Positions 1-7,568 of a DNA stretch of 7,568 nucleotides are shown piece after piece. This stretch comes from a virus. The stretch spans positions 1-7,568 of the IMG/VR virus record IMGVR_UViG_3300022559_000060. One strand, given 5' to 3'. The notes under the pieces are model-generated. The model saw only the letters and a program-made list of their open reading frames with translations. It did no database searches and had not been told where the DNA came from. The translations under genes and the position numbers were made by a program. Positions within the stretch are counted from its first letter, which is position 1. Each line of letters starts with the position of its first letter.

Positions 1-77
1 GGCGAGGTACGAGCCGGCGCGCAAACCGTCTTTCTGTCCTCTTTTCTGCATTTATACTTAGTGCGCTTCGCATAATG
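1..77. repeat. Left copy of the 77-bp terminal direct repeat (identical to 7492-7568)
   Basis: Base-by-base comparison: ggcgaggtacgagccggcgcgcaaaccgtctttctgtcctcttttctgcatttatacttagtgcgcttcgcataatg occurs at both ends. Confidence 0.95.
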
Positions 78-95
78 GCCGGCCTTATGTTGAGC
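65..95 (+). other. dif-like XerC/XerD recombination site (candidate attP)
   Basis: GCTTCGCATAA-TGGCCGGCC-TTATGTTGAGC compared with E. coli dif GGTGCGCATAA-TGTATA-TTATGTTAAAT. The left arm matches 9/11 and the right arm 8/11 (TTATGTT intact). The central region is 9 nt and GC-palindromic instead of 6 nt. Confidence 0.5.
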
Positions 96-147
96 GGCGT
101 CCGGAAAATCCGCGCAGCTCCGGGCGTCGGTTAACATAGGGCCGATT

Positions 148-384
148 ATGCGACGGCCTATCTCTCTCGAAATTCCCGCTCACCTGGTCGAATCCGCCCA
201 GCTCTACGCCCCGACCCGCCATGAACTCGACGCCGTTTGCTACGTCCTGGAGCGATACCCAGACGTGGTTGCGGATATGCGTCGGTTGACTGCCAGAGTC
301 GCCCAGCTCGATGCCGAATCAGCCCAGCTCGACCACCTGGTTACCGAACTCCAGGCAATCGCCCGGCGTGTCCTCGATCTTTAG
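148..384 (+). CDS. Putative ribbon-helix-helix DNA-binding protein with C-terminal coiled coil (78 aa)
   Basis: High GC3 ORF with a weak SD AGGG at 138-141. The N-terminus ISLEIPAHLVESAQLYA...LDAVCYVLERY fits a beta-strand/helix/turn/helix RHH pattern. The C-terminus RRLTARVAQLDAESAQLDHLVTELQAIARRVL is heptad-like. It aligns without gaps to the 516-782 product. Confidence 0.6.
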   Translation: MRRPISLEIPAHLVESAQLYAPTRHELDAVCYVLERYPDVVADMRRLTARVAQLDAESAQLDHLVTELQAIARRVLDL

Positions 385-2002: not shown

Positions 2003-3229
2003 ATGCTCGACAAACTGCACCTTTTCGTCCCTTTCCGCCTCGAGCACATCAAGTTGCTTGGCGCTGACGGTCGTAGCTACCCGGTGCACTTCGTCGACCT
2101 CGAAGCCCTGGAAGTTCCCCTGCAAGGCCAGATCAGCAGGGCAGACGATGGCAGCCTCCATGCCGAACGCCTGCGCCACGCCTGGGAATCGCTTTCTACC
2201 GGTTTCACACCGCTGGCGTTCAAGGTCTTTCACGAGTCGCTCGGTAAGCGACTGATGCCCGGCATCGAGATTAAGGCTAGTCCGGCCAAGCTCCTTCAGG
2301 GGCACAACGTTTTCGGCCCTGTCTGCATCGAGAAGGGTGCTTTGGTCATGCTCAAGTGGATTGCCGGCACCTATCCGAAGCTCGCGCAGATGCTCGATAT
2401 CTCGGCCACCCAGGTCTACGCCCTGGACTGCACCTATAGCGCCCGCATGCCCAACGAGCGCACCGCTCAGCAGGTGATTGATGCATTGCGCGGCACCTCC
2501 AACGGCCACACCAAGAGCCGTGGCGACAACTACCAGACAACCGCGTATTGGGGCGCTAAGGAATCGCGCCTCAAGCGCCTCAAGGCGTATTTGAAACACC
2601 CCGAGTTTCTGCGTCAGCTCGAAGACGCCAAGCGGGCAGGGCGGGGCGATTTGTCTGCTGCTCGCACCATGAAGGTACTGAGCAACCCATTACTCCAGGA
2701 GCACGCTAAGGACTTGCTCCGTTTCGAGGCCACGGTCATGCACCGATGGCTTGAGCGTCGCGGCGTCTCGTCGCGGCTTGTTGATCTGATCGCGCACCAG
2801 CAGAAGCTCCTAGGGGAGGGGCGTTGTTTTATTCAGGAGTGCTGGCAGGCGGTTACAGCCCCGATCTTTGCGGCCTTTGAAGGTATGACGATGAAACAGA
2901 TTGATGATGAAAAAGTGCTGGCCGCACTTATTGAGAAACACACCAAGTACGACCGCCACGGCAAGCCCAGTGACAGCTATGCCAAAAACCTCTTCCGGAC
3001 CTATCTCAGCCTGAAAGATTACGGCTGGGAACACACGAAAGATCTCGGCCCGCGCACGTTCTACCGCCACGTTAACGACATCTGCGAAGCTGGTCTCTCC
3101 AAAGCCGCCTTGCAGAAGCTCCACGAAGTGGACCGGGGTAATGTCGTGCCGCTGCTGCGCTTCGTGCAGGTCGACTTCTCGGCCCAGCGCCCTGACTGGT
3201 ACGTCGAGCCAACTGTTGAGGCTGCCTGA
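2003..3229 (+). CDS. Rolling-circle replication initiation protein, filamentous-phage gene II/X-type family
   Basis: 408-aa ORF with high GC3. The N-terminus MLDKLHLFVPF and the motif KASPAKLLQGHNVFGP resemble gene II-type phage replication initiators as I recall them. It is the first gene of the long + strand operon. There is no clear SD before the ATG at 2003. Confidence 0.75.
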   Translation: MLDKLHLFVPFRLEHIKLLGADGRSYPVHFVDLEALEVPLQGQISRADDGSLHAERLRHAWESLSTGFTPLAFKVFHESLGKRLMPGIEIKASPAKLLQGHNVFGPVCIEKGALVMLKWIAGTYPKLAQMLDISATQVYALDCTYSARMPNERTAQQVIDALRGTSNGHTKSRGDNYQTTAYWGAKESRLKRLKAYLKHPEFLRQLEDAKRAGRGDLSAARTMKVLSNPLLQEHAKDLLRFEATVMHRWLERRGVSSRLVDLIAHQQKLLGEGRCFIQECWQAVTAPIFAAFEGMTMKQIDDEKVLAALIEKHTKYDRHGKPSDSYAKNLFRTYLSLKDYGWEHTKDLGPRTFYRHVNDICEAGLSKAALQKLHEVDRGNVVPLLRFVQVDFSAQRPDWYVEPTVEAA

Positions 3230-4549: not shown

Positions 4550-5941
4550 ATGCGCAGACTTAGGCTGTATTTTTCGCTGTTGCTGCTGGTTGTTTTGGCA
4601 GGGGGGTATTCGGTGTCTACTTTTGCCGAAGACTATTACTGGACTACCAACTTTTCCGGCCAAATGCGGTTCTCTTCACCAGTTGAGGCCTGCACTTATT
4701 CAGGTCGCGCCTCCACACAAAATTGGTTTCCTGTTCGTAATACAGATATACAGTTCCGTTGCCATCGTACCTGTGCAAGTAACGAGGCATTTACTGGCTG
4801 CCCATCTAATTACGCCACCAATGTTCTCGTTTACCGGGGTGGCGATGGGTGCACCTCTCCCGCCGTGTACAACAATCAAACGGGCTTATGCGAAGCTCCT
4901 CAGCCCAGCCGCTGTGAATCCACCATCGGCCAGGTCGTCACGCACGAACACAAGTTGAAAGAAGCGGTTGGCCAGCCGCAGATCGAACCGCCTGGATCGG
5001 TCTGCGCCAATAGCTGCCAGTACGTCTTCGGCTTCACCGCGCCCAGCAACGTCTACGCCTACACCAGCGGTAATCCGCCTGGCGTGTTTGGCGTTTACAG
5101 CTATACCGGCAACGGCATCGAGTGCAACGAAGACACGCGCAAGGACCCGGGCAGTCCCGGTCAGCAGACTGATCCCGACGAAACCCCAACCCCTGATCCT
5201 GACAACAAATGCCCGGACGGCTACGTCTGGAACGGCACCTTCTGTAGCAAGGAACCGCCCCCGCCATGTGATCCCGAAGTCGAGGTTGGCGGTTGCGACG
5301 ACACCGGGAACCCCGATCCTGACAACCCTGGCGACGGTGACGGCGAAGGGGATGGTAACGGCGATGGAGACGGTGACGGTTCCGGCGAAGGAGATGGCAG
5401 TGGTGATGGCTCCGGTGATGGGTCTGGAGACGGCTCGGGCGAGGGCGAAGGCAGTGGTGACGGCGACGGATCGGGTGAAGACGATGGCGAAGCCGAATGC
5501 GACCCGGCCAAGGATCCAAACAAGTGCGGCAAGTCCAGCGTAGAAGGCGAAGCCTGTGACGCTGAGCTGAAGTGCACCGGCGATGCCGTGCAATGCGCGA
5601 TCCTCCGCCAGCAAAAGGCACTGCGCTGCCACGCCGAAGAACAGGCCGACTTTGAAAAGTACGAACCCGCCATTGAATCCGCGGTCCAGGGCGACGAGTT
5701 CCAGCTGGATGAAGGCTCCGGCGTCATCGACGTGCCTTCTTTCATCAACCAGGGCACCCGCTTTCTGCCGTCCGCCTGTCCTGCCGATGAGAGCTTCAGC
5801 CTGACCACGGCGGGCGGTGCCACTTTCCAGCTCAGCTACGAACCGCTTTGTCGCGCTGCCAGTGACCTGAGCGGCTTGTTTGTGGCCGTGGCTACCGTTC
5901 TTGCCGCCCTGTATGTAGGCGGCTCAGTAAGGGGTCAGTAA
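4550..5941 (+). CDS. Minor coat / adsorption protein (g3p-like, 463 aa from ATG 4550)
   Basis: It has a signal peptide MRRLRLYFSLLLLVVLAGGYSVSTFA, Cys-rich N-terminal domains, a Gly/Asp/Glu/Ser linker and a C-terminal TM anchor LFVAVATVLAALYVGG. It sits in the position of gene III. The track start at 4535 is a TTG; the ATG at 4550 gives a cleaner signal peptide. Confidence 0.75.
   Translation: MRRLRLYFSLLLLVVLAGGYSVSTFAEDYYWTTNFSGQMRFSSPVEACTYSGRASTQNWFPVRNTDIQFRCHRTCASNEAFTGCPSNYATNVLVYRGGDGCTSPAVYNNQTGLCEAPQPSRCESTIGQVVTHEHKLKEAVGQPQIEPPGSVCANSCQYVFGFTAPSNVYAYTSGNPPGVFGVYSYTGNGIECNEDTRKDPGSPGQQTDPDETPTPDPDNKCPDGYVWNGTFCSKEPPPPCDPEVEVGGCDDTGNPDPDNPGDGDGEGDGNGDGDGDGSGEGDGSGDGSGDGSGDGSGEGEGSGDGDGSGEDDGEAECDPAKDPNKCGKSSVEGEACDAELKCTGDAVQCAILRQQKALRCHAEEQADFEKYEPAIESAVQGDEFQLDEGSGVIDVPSFINQGTRFLPSACPADESFSLTTAGGATFQLSYEPLCRAASDLSGLFVAVATVLAALYVGGSVRGQ
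5330..5491 (+). repeat. Low-complexity (G-D/E/S/N)n linker-coding repeat within the g3p-like gene
   Basis: It encodes GDGDGEGDGNGDGDGDGSGEGDGSGDGSGDGSGDGSGEGEGSGDGDGSGEDDGE using varied synonymous codons, so the repeat is at protein level rather than an exact DNA tandem. Confidence 0.85.
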
Positions 5942-6324
5942 TGCAGTTTCTATTCATCGTGCAGATGCTCGTCATCATCCTCGGCCCGCTGGTAAAGATG
6001 GTGCTGAAAATGATCGGGTTCGGCTTCGTCTCTTATGTCGGCTTCAACCTCATCATCGGCCAGGCCCAGGACTACCTGTTCGGGCTGATTGGCGATTTAG
6101 GTCCGGTGATCCAGGGGATTCTCGGGCTTGCCAAGTTCGATGTGGTGGTGAACCTTTACTTCGCCGCTATCTCGACGCGCTTCGTCCTCGCCGGGATCGA
6201 CAAGGCCACCGACCGCAAACGCAATCAGGTCTGGCGCGCGCGGGCGGCACCTCCATCGAAGCCTAAGGAGGCGCCGTTATGCTCGTTATCCGTACCGGCA
6301 AGCCCGGCCATGGCAAGACCCTGA
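5941..6324 (+). CDS. g6p-like small membrane protein (127 aa)
   Basis: The start overlaps the upstream stop (TAATG). The N-terminal two thirds are hydrophobic (FLFIVQMLVIILGPLV, IGFGFVSYVGFNLIIG, VVVNLYFAAI). It lies between the g3p-like and Zot-like genes, as gene VI does in Ff. Its 3' end overlaps the next gene by 46 nt. Confidence 0.6.
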   Translation: MQFLFIVQMLVIILGPLVKMVLKMIGFGFVSYVGFNLIIGQAQDYLFGLIGDLGPVIQGILGLAKFDVVVNLYFAAISTRFVLAGIDKATDRKRNQVWRARAAPPSKPKEAPLCSLSVPASPAMARP

Positions 6325-7472
6325 ACACCATCCGCGAAGTGGACCAGAAGGCCCATGCCGAAGGCCGGGTGGTCTACTTCCACAACATCAACGGCCTCAA
6401 GCCCGATCTGCTGCAAGCGCAGTGGTTCGAGTTCGAAGATCCCGAGAAGTGGTTCGAGCTGCCAAACGATTCGATCATCGTCGTGGACGAAGCTCAGGGC
6501 TGGTTCGGCGCACGCGATCCACGAGCGCGCCCGCCCGAGCACATCACGCGTTTCGAGACCATGCGCCACCAAGGCCACGAGGTGCACCTCGTCACCCAGG
6601 ACCCGCGTTATCTCGATGTTCACCTGCGCCGGCTGTGCAACTCCCATATTCACTACTGGCGCGTGTTCAAGTCTGCCCAGCTGCTGCGCTTCGAGTCGGA
6701 AGTGGTGGTGGAAAAGGTCGAGCTGAAAACCAGCTTCAAGGACGCCGACAAGAAGTCGCTGCGCCTGGATAAGCGTTACTTCGGCGCCTACACCAGCAGC
6801 AACGCCAAGCACCACTTCCAGACCAAGGTGCCGACCAAGTTCATCCTGGCGTTGTGCGTGATCCTTGGTGCCGGCATTCTCGTTTATCGCGCCTATGAGC
6901 GCTACGCCGCCGAGAAAGTGCAGGCCGCAACAGCCACCAGCGCGCCGGCCGGGAGCATGGTCGATCAGGTACGGGATACGGTCGGGTCGTTTATCCGGCC
7001 AAGTGCTTCCGAAGACGGCCAATCGGCACCGCTCACCGTCGAGCAGTACCTGGGCAAGCGCGTGCCCAGGGTACAAGACCTGCCGGCATCCGCGCCGGTG
7101 TATGACGGCCTGACCGGCCCGCAAGCCTTCCCGAAACCGATCTGCATCGCCACCACCGACCGCGATCTGATCGCCCGCAACTACAAGCGCATGCAGGTCG
7201 GCGATAGCGATGAAGGGCTGACGGGGTGCCGATGCAACACCCAGCAGGGCACCCGCCTGGATGTGTCGTTTCGCTTCTGTATGTCGGTCGTGCAGAACGG
7301 CTACTTCGACGACACCAAGCCCGACCGCGGTTCGCCTCAGGACCAGCGAAATCAGCACGCCCAAAACGCCCCGCCACCGACGATGCCTCCCGCTCACGCT
7401 GCAGCTGTGCAACCGGCGGGAGGCCCGAACCTGACCGTCGTGCCGTACCAGAAGGGGCAATTCCTGTGGTGA
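6279..7472 (+). CDS. Zot / g1p-family phage assembly ATPase (397 aa)
   Basis: SD AAGGAGG at 6265-6271. The Walker A motif GKPGHGKT is at aa 7-14, with a Walker B-like IIVVDEAQ and a central TM segment FILALCVILGAGILVY. The domain order matches gene I/Zot proteins. Confidence 0.85.
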   Translation: MLVIRTGKPGHGKTLNTIREVDQKAHAEGRVVYFHNINGLKPDLLQAQWFEFEDPEKWFELPNDSIIVVDEAQGWFGARDPRARPPEHITRFETMRHQGHEVHLVTQDPRYLDVHLRRLCNSHIHYWRVFKSAQLLRFESEVVVEKVELKTSFKDADKKSLRLDKRYFGAYTSSNAKHHFQTKVPTKFILALCVILGAGILVYRAYERYAAEKVQAATATSAPAGSMVDQVRDTVGSFIRPSASEDGQSAPLTVEQYLGKRVPRVQDLPASAPVYDGLTGPQAFPKPICIATTDRDLIARNYKRMQVGDSDEGLTGCRCNTQQGTRLDVSFRFCMSVVQNGYFDDTKPDRGSPQDQRNQHAQNAPPPTMPPAHAAAVQPAGGPNLTVVPYQKGQFLW

Positions 7473-7478
7473 TGAGCG

Positions 7479-7540
7479 GGTTTGCACGCCGGGCGAGGTA
7501 CGAGCCGGCGCGCAAACCGTCTTTCTGTCCTCTTTTCTGC
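7479..7540 (+). terminator. Rho-independent terminator at the end of the structural operon
   Basis: Stem GGTTTGCaCGCCGG (7479-7492) / CCGGCGcGCAAACC (7505-7518) with one A/C mismatch and a 12-nt loop, followed by the T-rich GTCTTTCTGTCCTCTTTTCTG. A partial copy lies at 1-48. Confidence 0.7.
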
Positions 7541-7568
7541 ATTTATACTTAGTGCGCTTCGCATAATG
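7492..7568. repeat. Right copy of the 77-bp terminal direct repeat
   Basis: Identical to 1-77. The repeat starts inside the stem of the terminator hairpin after the Zot-like gene, which argues for circular-contig overlap rather than a biological att or LTR. Confidence 0.95.

Follow-up and report, generated by a model that had tools for sequence, protein, structure and literature searches.

A filamentous phage genome that encodes no integrase was found to carry two inverted dif-like sites which, as we judge with a probability of roughly 80%, together form (positions 65–156) a CTXphi-type attP(+), the Xer-exploiting attachment site of the phage. The original prediction had described the first of these sites; the second was absent from it. 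On the modelled fold, site 1 is best read as one half of a two-site inverted arrangement that would fold in (+) single-stranded DNA. Three lines of evidence, each observed or computed directly, bear on this: the two sites themselves, the fold with its covariation among homologues, and the location of related prophages at dif together with the positions of their junctions.

Two dif-like sites in a phage without a recombinase gene

The window (the whole stretch of DNA analysed, 7,568 nt) comprises a circular genome of 7,491 nt and a 77-nt assembly overlap, with a G+C content of 58%. Its open reading frames are those of a filamentous phage: Rep G2P, a G5P-like single-stranded DNA-binding protein, major coat, g3p-like and DUF2523 (g6p-like) proteins and Zot/pI, with further small leftward and rightward ORFs of no assigned function. 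Searches of the window ORFs against Pfam, PHROGs and NCBIfam matched no integrase, transposase or serine recombinase family, which bears out the earlier statement that no integrase ORF is present, and the phage is thus an element without its own recombinase, as CTX-type IMEXs are. The closest relatives of its pI were in prophages of Stutzerimonas and Pseudomonas (63–88% identical), Rep showed ~75% nucleotide identity to Rep of integrase-less P. aeruginosa Pf phages, and in whole-genome megablast the matches were confined to Rep and short stretches of P. aeruginosa Pf phages; we infer a host in the Pseudomonas/Stutzerimonas group. The features referred to below are as follows.

65–75 (+): putative XerC-binding arm of site 1, GCTTCGCATAA, assigned by similarity to dif
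76–84 (+): upper-strand overlap (central) region of site 1, TGGCCGGCC, 9 nt
85–95 (+): XerD-arm-like sequence of site 1, TTATGTTGAGC, 8/11 to TTATGTTAAAT
129–156 (−): site 2, inverted and dif-like, CCGTCGCATAA-TCGGCC-CTATGTTAACC, canonical 11-6-11
146–156 (−): XerC arm of site 2
140–145 (−): central region of site 2
129–139 (−): XerD-like arm of site 2
148–384 (+): 78-aa ORF (phrog_13909), its start ATG within the site 2 XerC arm (ATTATGCGA)
2003–3229: Rep G2P, by family assignment
6279–7472 (+): Zot/pI assembly gene (Pfam Zot), the last gene before attP on the circle
7492–7568 (+): terminal duplicate of 1–77, the assembly overlap of the circular contig

In the terminal duplicate the XerC arm of site 1 appears again (7556–7566), followed by the first two nucleotides of its spacer; this is no additional site.

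The two arms of site 1 match those of E. coli dif at 9/11 and 8/11, where they had originally been placed, and are separated, as had also been noted, by 9 nt in place of 6. Likeness of this overlap to that of dif is confined to the XerC side, where the first one or two nucleotides (T, TG) agree, again in line with the earlier description; similarity on the XerD side is absent. Comparison with dif of candidate hosts, which the original prediction had proposed, gave closer matches for the XerC arm than the 9/11 of E. coli: 11/11 to its counterpart in the dif that adjoins a prophage of Stutzerimonas kunmingensis (L003) and in metagenome dif sites, and 10/11 to the dif of P. aeruginosa PAO1, GATTCGCATAATGTATATTATGTTAAAT (PMC2731167). 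Against the Stutzerimonas dif arms, with spacers of 5–13 nt allowed, site 1 scored 19/22, a score reached by none of 100 shuffled genomes (maximum 18). It differs from a chromosomal dif, a 28-bp 11-6-11 site at a chromosome's replication terminus, in being an 11-9-11 site on a 7.5-kb phage circle. A BLAST comparison of 55–165, the attP region, with a phage collection gave chance matches only.

Site 2 lies close by in inverted orientation (65–95 on the (+) strand, 129–156 on the (−) strand), the arrangement of a CTX-type IMEX. It scored 17/22 against the dif arms at a spacer of 6. Its spacing is thus canonical, as the 9-bp spacer of site 1 is not, and of its central TCGGCC just the initial T (or TC) agrees with dif; from this sequence it is plausible that site 2 would be incompatible with dif as a duplex. 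The motif TCGCATAAT occurs at 68 (+), at 145–153 (−) and in the terminal duplicate, against an expected 0.04 occurrences.

Two other stretches of the genome drew attention. At 4886–4896, within the g3p-like ORF (codons G-L-C-E-A), the XerC arm recurs a third time without mismatch, in inverted orientation (reading TTATGCGAAGC on the (+) strand) and with no neighbouring XerD-like arm; we estimate ~0.004 chance matches. Relatives do not share it, and we treat it as coincidental or unexplained. Between leftward small ORFs, positions 1381–1660 contain long imperfect inverted repeats and several terminator-like hairpins, and a 42–59-nt stretch (1604–1662) is 88–95% identical to P. aeruginosa phage NEU2023 and to two of the relatives described below (L022 and L161); this intergenic region is a candidate replication origin or packaging signal.

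A predicted hairpin and its conservation among homologues

Folded as single-stranded DNA, the (+) strand of 55–165 formed one long hairpin (dG −31 kcal/mol, z −4.77) that none of 200 shuffles equalled in stability, with pair probabilities of 0.81–0.98 and the following parts.

68–153 (+): whole folded attP(+) hairpin, predicted
68–76 with 145–153: XerC-arm stem, predicted
77–79: upper-strand bulge GGC, G77-G78-C79 predicted unpaired and T76 paired
80–93 with 131–144: central and XerD-arm stem, predicted, in which C80–C84 form the overlap pairs with G140–G144
95–105 with 119–129: distal stem, joining the two sites
106–118: loop, 13 nt

The XerD-like arm of site 1 (85–95) is predicted to pair with 129–139, and in the fold the distance between XerC and XerD arms is 6 nt along the lower strand but 9 nt along the upper, so that the ‘expanded spacer’ amounts to a 3-nt bulge. 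By computation, therefore, the two sites would form in (+) single-stranded DNA a stem around an overlap with unpaired bases. A different single-stranded fold had been suggested earlier, the local palindrome CATAA-t-GGCCGGCC-TTATG; it did not survive, its pair probabilities in context being ~0 as against those of the long hairpin. The (−) strand also folded significantly, although more weakly (−27 versus −31, z −3.6), and for this reason the assignment of the strand draws on the wobble pairs described below and on packaging, inoviruses packaging the coding strand.

Homologues were collected by scanning viral contigs for the pattern CGCATAAT-N4-14-TTATGTT-N30-60-ATTATGCG, which was found in at least 120 contigs, mostly of 4–9 kb; the pattern demanded both sites, and the size of this set consequently says nothing about how frequent the design is. 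From among the matches listed, 30 G+C-rich homologues were aligned on the structure of the window, the blocks fixed by the pattern being uninformative for covariation. In this alignment 95.5% of cells were paired, versus 35–41% when the partners were slid, and changes on both sides were seen at 11 pairs (49 cells); none of 500 shuffles reached any of these measures. Compensatory changes occurred in overlap pairs that the pattern left free (GC to AU, CG to GC and CG to UA, columns 18–21/77–80) and in the distal stem (columns 34/64, 36/62, 38/60 and 39/59). Three G.T wobbles were near-invariant (30/30, 27/30 and 27/30) and become A.C mismatches in the complementary strand, which makes the (+) fold the more stable; across 96 distinct hairpins among the matches listed, mean fold energies were −25.1 for (+) versus −22.8 for (−) (Wilcoxon p 3e-8).

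The spacing was as regular as the pairing. In the same 96 distinct hairpins among the matches listed the upper overlap was 9–13 nt, while the lower was 6 nt in 67 and 5–7 nt in 86; an upper spacer of 9–13 nt was present in 114 of 118 segments among the matches listed, and the long spacer is therefore normal for the class and no oddity. Bulges differed in both length and sequence. Homology of the overlap to dif was restricted to its XerC side: it starts with TG, as does TGTATA, in 27 of the 30 homologues, and in one element whose host has a TCTATA dif it starts with TCT.

The hairpin was not confined to contigs found with the pattern. Relatives obtained independently of it folded alike, with z from −5.1 to −6.6 (P. 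aeruginosa phages Pf 97-1 and 42-1, L020/L023, L022 and L161), and P. aeruginosa NEU2023 and 5a-DAzarov have the same double site as Pf 97-1 and 42-1, making four integrase-less phages. Contigs with the E. coli-type XerC arm GGTGCGCATAA (L054, for example) also carry the double-site hairpin, with upper spacers of 11 nt, and the hairpin was likewise present in viral contigs partly similar to an A. baumannii filamentous phage (14% coverage, 86% identity). An exact 25-mer across site 1 is common to three otherwise different viral contigs.

That the dif likeness arose by chance, or is a decayed and non-functional remnant, is in the light of these data hardly credible. Such a reading can point to the XerD arm, which matches at only 8/11, and to the fact that no prophage of the exact phage was found; set against it are the shuffled genomes, none of which attained the score of site 1, the 25-mer held in common by different contigs, and the strong covariation.

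Three contigs (L024, L025 and L026) match the window from exactly the XerC arm (65) to ~284, 1101 and 380, respectively, and upstream of it their sequence is unrelated. This suggests, from sequence comparison, that phage backbones exchange a lysogeny module (attP with small ORFs), with the Xer site as the point of exchange. ORF 148–384 travels with attP in this module; it is coiled-coil-like and 49% identical to a homologue in the same place in L003. Its possible role as a Xer activation factor was looked into: the one family match was phrog_13909, with DUF6284 below threshold and nothing in NCBIfam.

Where the distal stem meets the loop (106–118; alignment columns 40–46) there is a conserved motif, GGA(A/C/T)AAT, which Xer binding leaves unexplained. 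Intergenic hairpins of inoviruses are often origins or packaging signals. The hairpin might, then, serve mainly some other single-strand role (minus-strand origin or primer promoter, packaging, or control of ORF 148–384), its dif-like arms being secondary; this motif and the placing of a conserved ORF's ATG within site 2 would suit such a role. We consider it very unlikely as the main function. The conserved blocks are exactly dif half-sites, relatives lie at dif and their crossovers map to the XerC border, and integrase-encoding relatives are without the structure. No sigma-70-like promoter was found in a scan of 1–2100, which leaves the CATAAT of the XerC arm unsupported as a −10 element, and the large inverted repeats at ~1381–1520 would suit an origin or packaging signal better. 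It is possible that the hairpin has a second function added to its role as attP.

Integrase-less relatives integrated at dif

Integrase-less relatives adjoining dif were found in Stutzerimonas, in Pseudomonas and on metagenome contigs. Among 23 genomic loci found with pI, only three (L003, L020 and L022) had a canonical dif. A metagenome scan for dif with this XerC arm returned 14 contigs, which comprised native dif sites and three further inovirus prophages, with pI directly upstream of dif. Both junctions could be read in L003, L020, L022 and L161, and in each the crossover falls where the XerC arm of site 1 meets the spacer, and dif has been re-formed on one side; these observations are of relatives of the window phage.

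The prophage in L003 matches window 4910–7491 and then 2–78 at 97%, ending after GCTTCGCATAA-TGG. Beyond this right junction comes TGGAGA-TTATGAAATGA, which belongs to the left end of a 185-bp element; dif follows as GCTTCGCATAA-TCTATA-TTATGTTAAAT. At the left junction, similarity to the window starts exactly at 65 with GCTTCGCATAA-TGACACTGGCC-TTATGTTGAGC, and site 2 follows. In comparison with a 97%-identical contig (L148), synteny begins exactly at dif. The host dif overlap is TCTATA and that of the prophage TGA..., with only one nucleotide in common, a weaker homology than the rules known for CTXphi suggest and one that counts against the attP(+) reading.

In L020, L022 and L161, attL consists of the XerC arm, the long phage spacer and site 2, and attR of phage sequence, the XerC arm and TGTATA-TTATGTTAAAT; for L020, the junction of the phage itself was read from L023. 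Arms of attL and attR differ at arm positions 1–2 (position 2 in L020/L022), as if attR keeps the phage arm. Of the metagenome contigs, L161 encodes a Rep 59% identical to the window Rep and has the double-site attL, and in L158 the one feature seen is pI upstream of dif. In a tandem inovirus prophage with a period of ~6.8 kb (L152:2627 and 9424), the two copies meet at an intact double-site attP and the second is followed by a canonical dif, an arrangement typical of CTXphi and Ypfphi lysogens. In all six of L003, L020, L022, L152, L158 and L161, pI is followed by dif in one orientation throughout, as (+) upper-strand exchange at A75/T76 predicts.

As originally predicted, then, integrase-less phages of this kind do occur at dif between hybrid junctions. 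This part of the prediction stands for relatives; for the exact window phage, the predicted attR hybrid (GTGC, XerC arm, NTATA, XerD arm) gave 0 matches in a metagenome scan of its own. Likewise, the proposal of an integrative phage exploiting Xer is upheld by relatives at dif with junctions at site 1; its other element, one duplex site whose spacer is unusually long, is not the best reading.

We weighed the latter as a route of its own, in which the double-stranded replicative form recombines through site 1 alone, as in VGJphi, with XerC acting across the 9-bp spacer and the hairpin irrelevant. The junctions of L003, L020, L022 and L161 fit this route equally well, position alone being unable to tell single-stranded from duplex DNA, and VGJ-type integration likewise uses XerC only (PMC4246890). 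A VGJ-type site is, however, a single duplex attP with a normal central region at the crossover; here the spacer of the junction site is 9 nt, and 9–13 nt in relatives, and among the readable junctions of relatives none mapped to the 6-nt site 2. Spacers of 9–13 bp clash with the 6-bp Xer geometry, and the 12-bp attP1 of CTXphi is stated to be unsuitable as a duplex (PMC4246890). Recombination through duplex site 1 would further leave unexplained the presence of site 2, the covariation of the overlap, the constant 5–7-nt lower spacing and the (+)-specific wobbles. We regard it as unlikely, and retain the folded attP(+).

The dif region of S. kunmingensis BUN14 (L003:1–11484) is itself an array of Xer-exploiting elements. 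It includes two tandem copies of a 1461-bp satellite-like element that has its own double-site hairpin and ORFs of 76 aa, 118 aa (a weak ribbon-helix-helix match) and 125 aa; the phage at 2192–11282, in which an internal 2344-bp tandem duplication doubles the Rep gene; and, between phage and dif, the 185-bp mini-element (L003:11272–11484), whose left end, GCTTCGCATAA-TGGAGA-TTATGAAATGA, has normal 6-nt spacing and whose sole ORF (53 aa) has no family match. The mini-element may be a minimal or decayed Xer-exploiting element. The L152 tandem and the L003 satellite array would fit a CTX-like need of tandem copies for regeneration of the genome by rolling circle.

Integrase-bearing relatives provide the contrast. 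The pI relatives L001 and L010 have their own tyrosine integrase, a tRNA gene lies 2.5–5 kb downstream of pI in 12 of 15 loci, and no dif-like site was found at these integrase-type or tRNA-side pI loci. The window phage, with no integrase, falls outside the integrase-dependent Pf phages, which combine a tyrosine integrase of their own with a tRNA/tmRNA or direct-repeat attB.

Proposed route of integration and its place among Xer-exploiting phages

We propose that, in the packaged (+) strand, site 1 (65–95) would pair with inverted site 2 (129–156) to give a hairpin (68–153) that mimics dif, comprising a XerC-binding stem, an overlap (lower strand 6 nt, upper strand 9 nt with the GGC bulge) and a XerD-binding stem. 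Host XerC and XerD would bind the folded site, and XerC would cut the upper (+) strand after CATAA, at A75/T76, and exchange it with the equivalent strand of chromosomal dif. Since there is no homology on the XerD side, no second strand exchange would follow, and replication would convert the pseudo-Holliday junction into a prophage. Read from the left, this would run from the XerC arm of the host through the spacer and site 2 of the phage and the phage genes up to and including pI, and would close with a hybrid in which the XerC arm comes from the phage and the central region and XerD arm from the host, a regenerated working dif. ORF 148–384 would become the first gene of the prophage, parted from the pI operon, so that it might be expressed differently in prophage and free phage. 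Binding and cleavage by XerC/XerD and the choice of strand at the folded site are predictions; catalysis by XerC alone, a single-stranded substrate, replicative resolution and irreversibility would be expected by analogy with CTXphi.

In CTXphi, attP(+) is made up of attP1 and attP2, which are inverted relative to each other and have central regions of 12 bp and 5–7 bp, respectively; the packaged (+) strand folds, leaving unpaired overlap bases, and XerC alone exchanges one pair of strands with dif, homology being needed only beside the XerC cut. The resulting pseudo-Holliday junction is resolved by replication, and the attachment site can no longer be re-formed from the integrated duplex (PMC4246890, PMC3442271). 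Our comparison was made by description, from reviews and a 2012 EMBO J paper. Shared with CTXphi are the lack of a phage recombinase, an inverted dif-like pair in which one central region is over-long (12 bp in CTXphi, 9 here) and the other 5–7 bp (6 here), a (+) strand fold (here predicted) in which the sites make up the stem and some overlap bases stay unpaired, dif homology on the XerC side only, and prophages (here, of relatives) that lie at dif, restore it on one side and can form tandem arrays. The window phage differs in that its sites are ~33 nt apart (96–128) rather than ~90, forming a simple hairpin of ~86 nt rather than a fold of ~150 nt; its overlap is mostly base-paired with a discrete 3-nt upper-strand bulge; and its backbone is unrelated (Pf-like structural genes, G2P-type Rep) and its host group another, the case being known here computationally. 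Ypfphi of Yersinia pestis and CUS-1phi of E. coli are enterobacterial IMEXs related to CTXphi (PMC3442271); they belong to other hosts and phage lineages, and were likewise compared by description.

XacF1 and other phages have been reported to integrate at dif through host XerC/D. VGJphi, in which XerC mediates a single-strand exchange (PMC4246890), resembles the window phage as an integrase-less inovirus that integrates at dif (here, as judged from relatives). Its attP, unlike the one described here, is a single duplex of ~29 bp with a central region of normal length, and its integration is reversible; the 9-nt crossover spacer of the window phage would need its partner site for the geometry to be restored.

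Among Pseudomonas phages, the closest structural and assembly genes are those of Pf4/Pf5-type prophages, which unlike the window phage have a tyrosine integrase, lie beside tRNA-Gly, -Met, -Ser or -SeC (PMC7549136) and show no dif-like site. The integrase-less P. aeruginosa Pf phages (groups 4–7: Pf 97-1, 42-1 and others; NEU2023, 5a-DAzarov) resemble it in Rep and in having the same double site, and differ in XerD-like arms beginning TTACGT..., an upper spacer of 11 nt and a branched distal part. Their prophages have been described as bounded by 11–12-nt direct repeats in an ‘intergenic region’, with the comment that they ‘may use host-encoded integrases’ and with dif unmentioned (PMC10675462). 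We found these terminal repeats to be TTCGCATAATG(T), in which nine nucleotides from the end of the XerC arm are followed by the first 2–3 of the overlap.

All P. aeruginosa Pf prophages identified in one study carry integrases, and that study contrasts them with Xer users (PMC7549136); for A. baumannii filamentous phages, use of host machinery is only presumed (PMC11209303). In the searchable literature we found no description of a folded Xer attP in Pseudomonas/Stutzerimonas phages. In each feature that could be tested, the window phage (or, for the prophage at dif, its relatives) is as a CTX-type IMEX should be; the mechanism itself is already known.

The finding proposes a concrete integration mechanism for integrase-less filamentous phages of the Pseudomonas group. 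The site also fixes exact prophage borders, from XerC arm to regenerated dif, which in IMEX arrays tend to escape automated tools. The spacing of 6 nt on the lower strand with a bulged upper strand (5–7 nt lower in 86/96 hairpins, from more than 100 viral contigs, among the matches listed) would allow single-strand Xer integration to be flagged from sequence, and as architecture and spacing rule are apparently widespread, the result has modest general value.

Whether the folded two-site attP(+) is a general Xer route of integrase-less inoviruses across many Gammaproteobacteria, with a fixed spacing rule, seems to us evenly balanced. The rule would be 6 nt on the uncut strand and, on the exchanged strand, a bulge of 3–7 nt of free sequence placed 1–2 nt 3' of the XerC cut. 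Candidate hosts would then include Pseudomonas/Stutzerimonas, Acinetobacter and Enterobacteriaceae, and not just Vibrio and enterobacteria; the first overlap nucleotides would act as a tunable key to host-dif specificity, and the Xer site would be a breakpoint for the shuffling of modules between phages.
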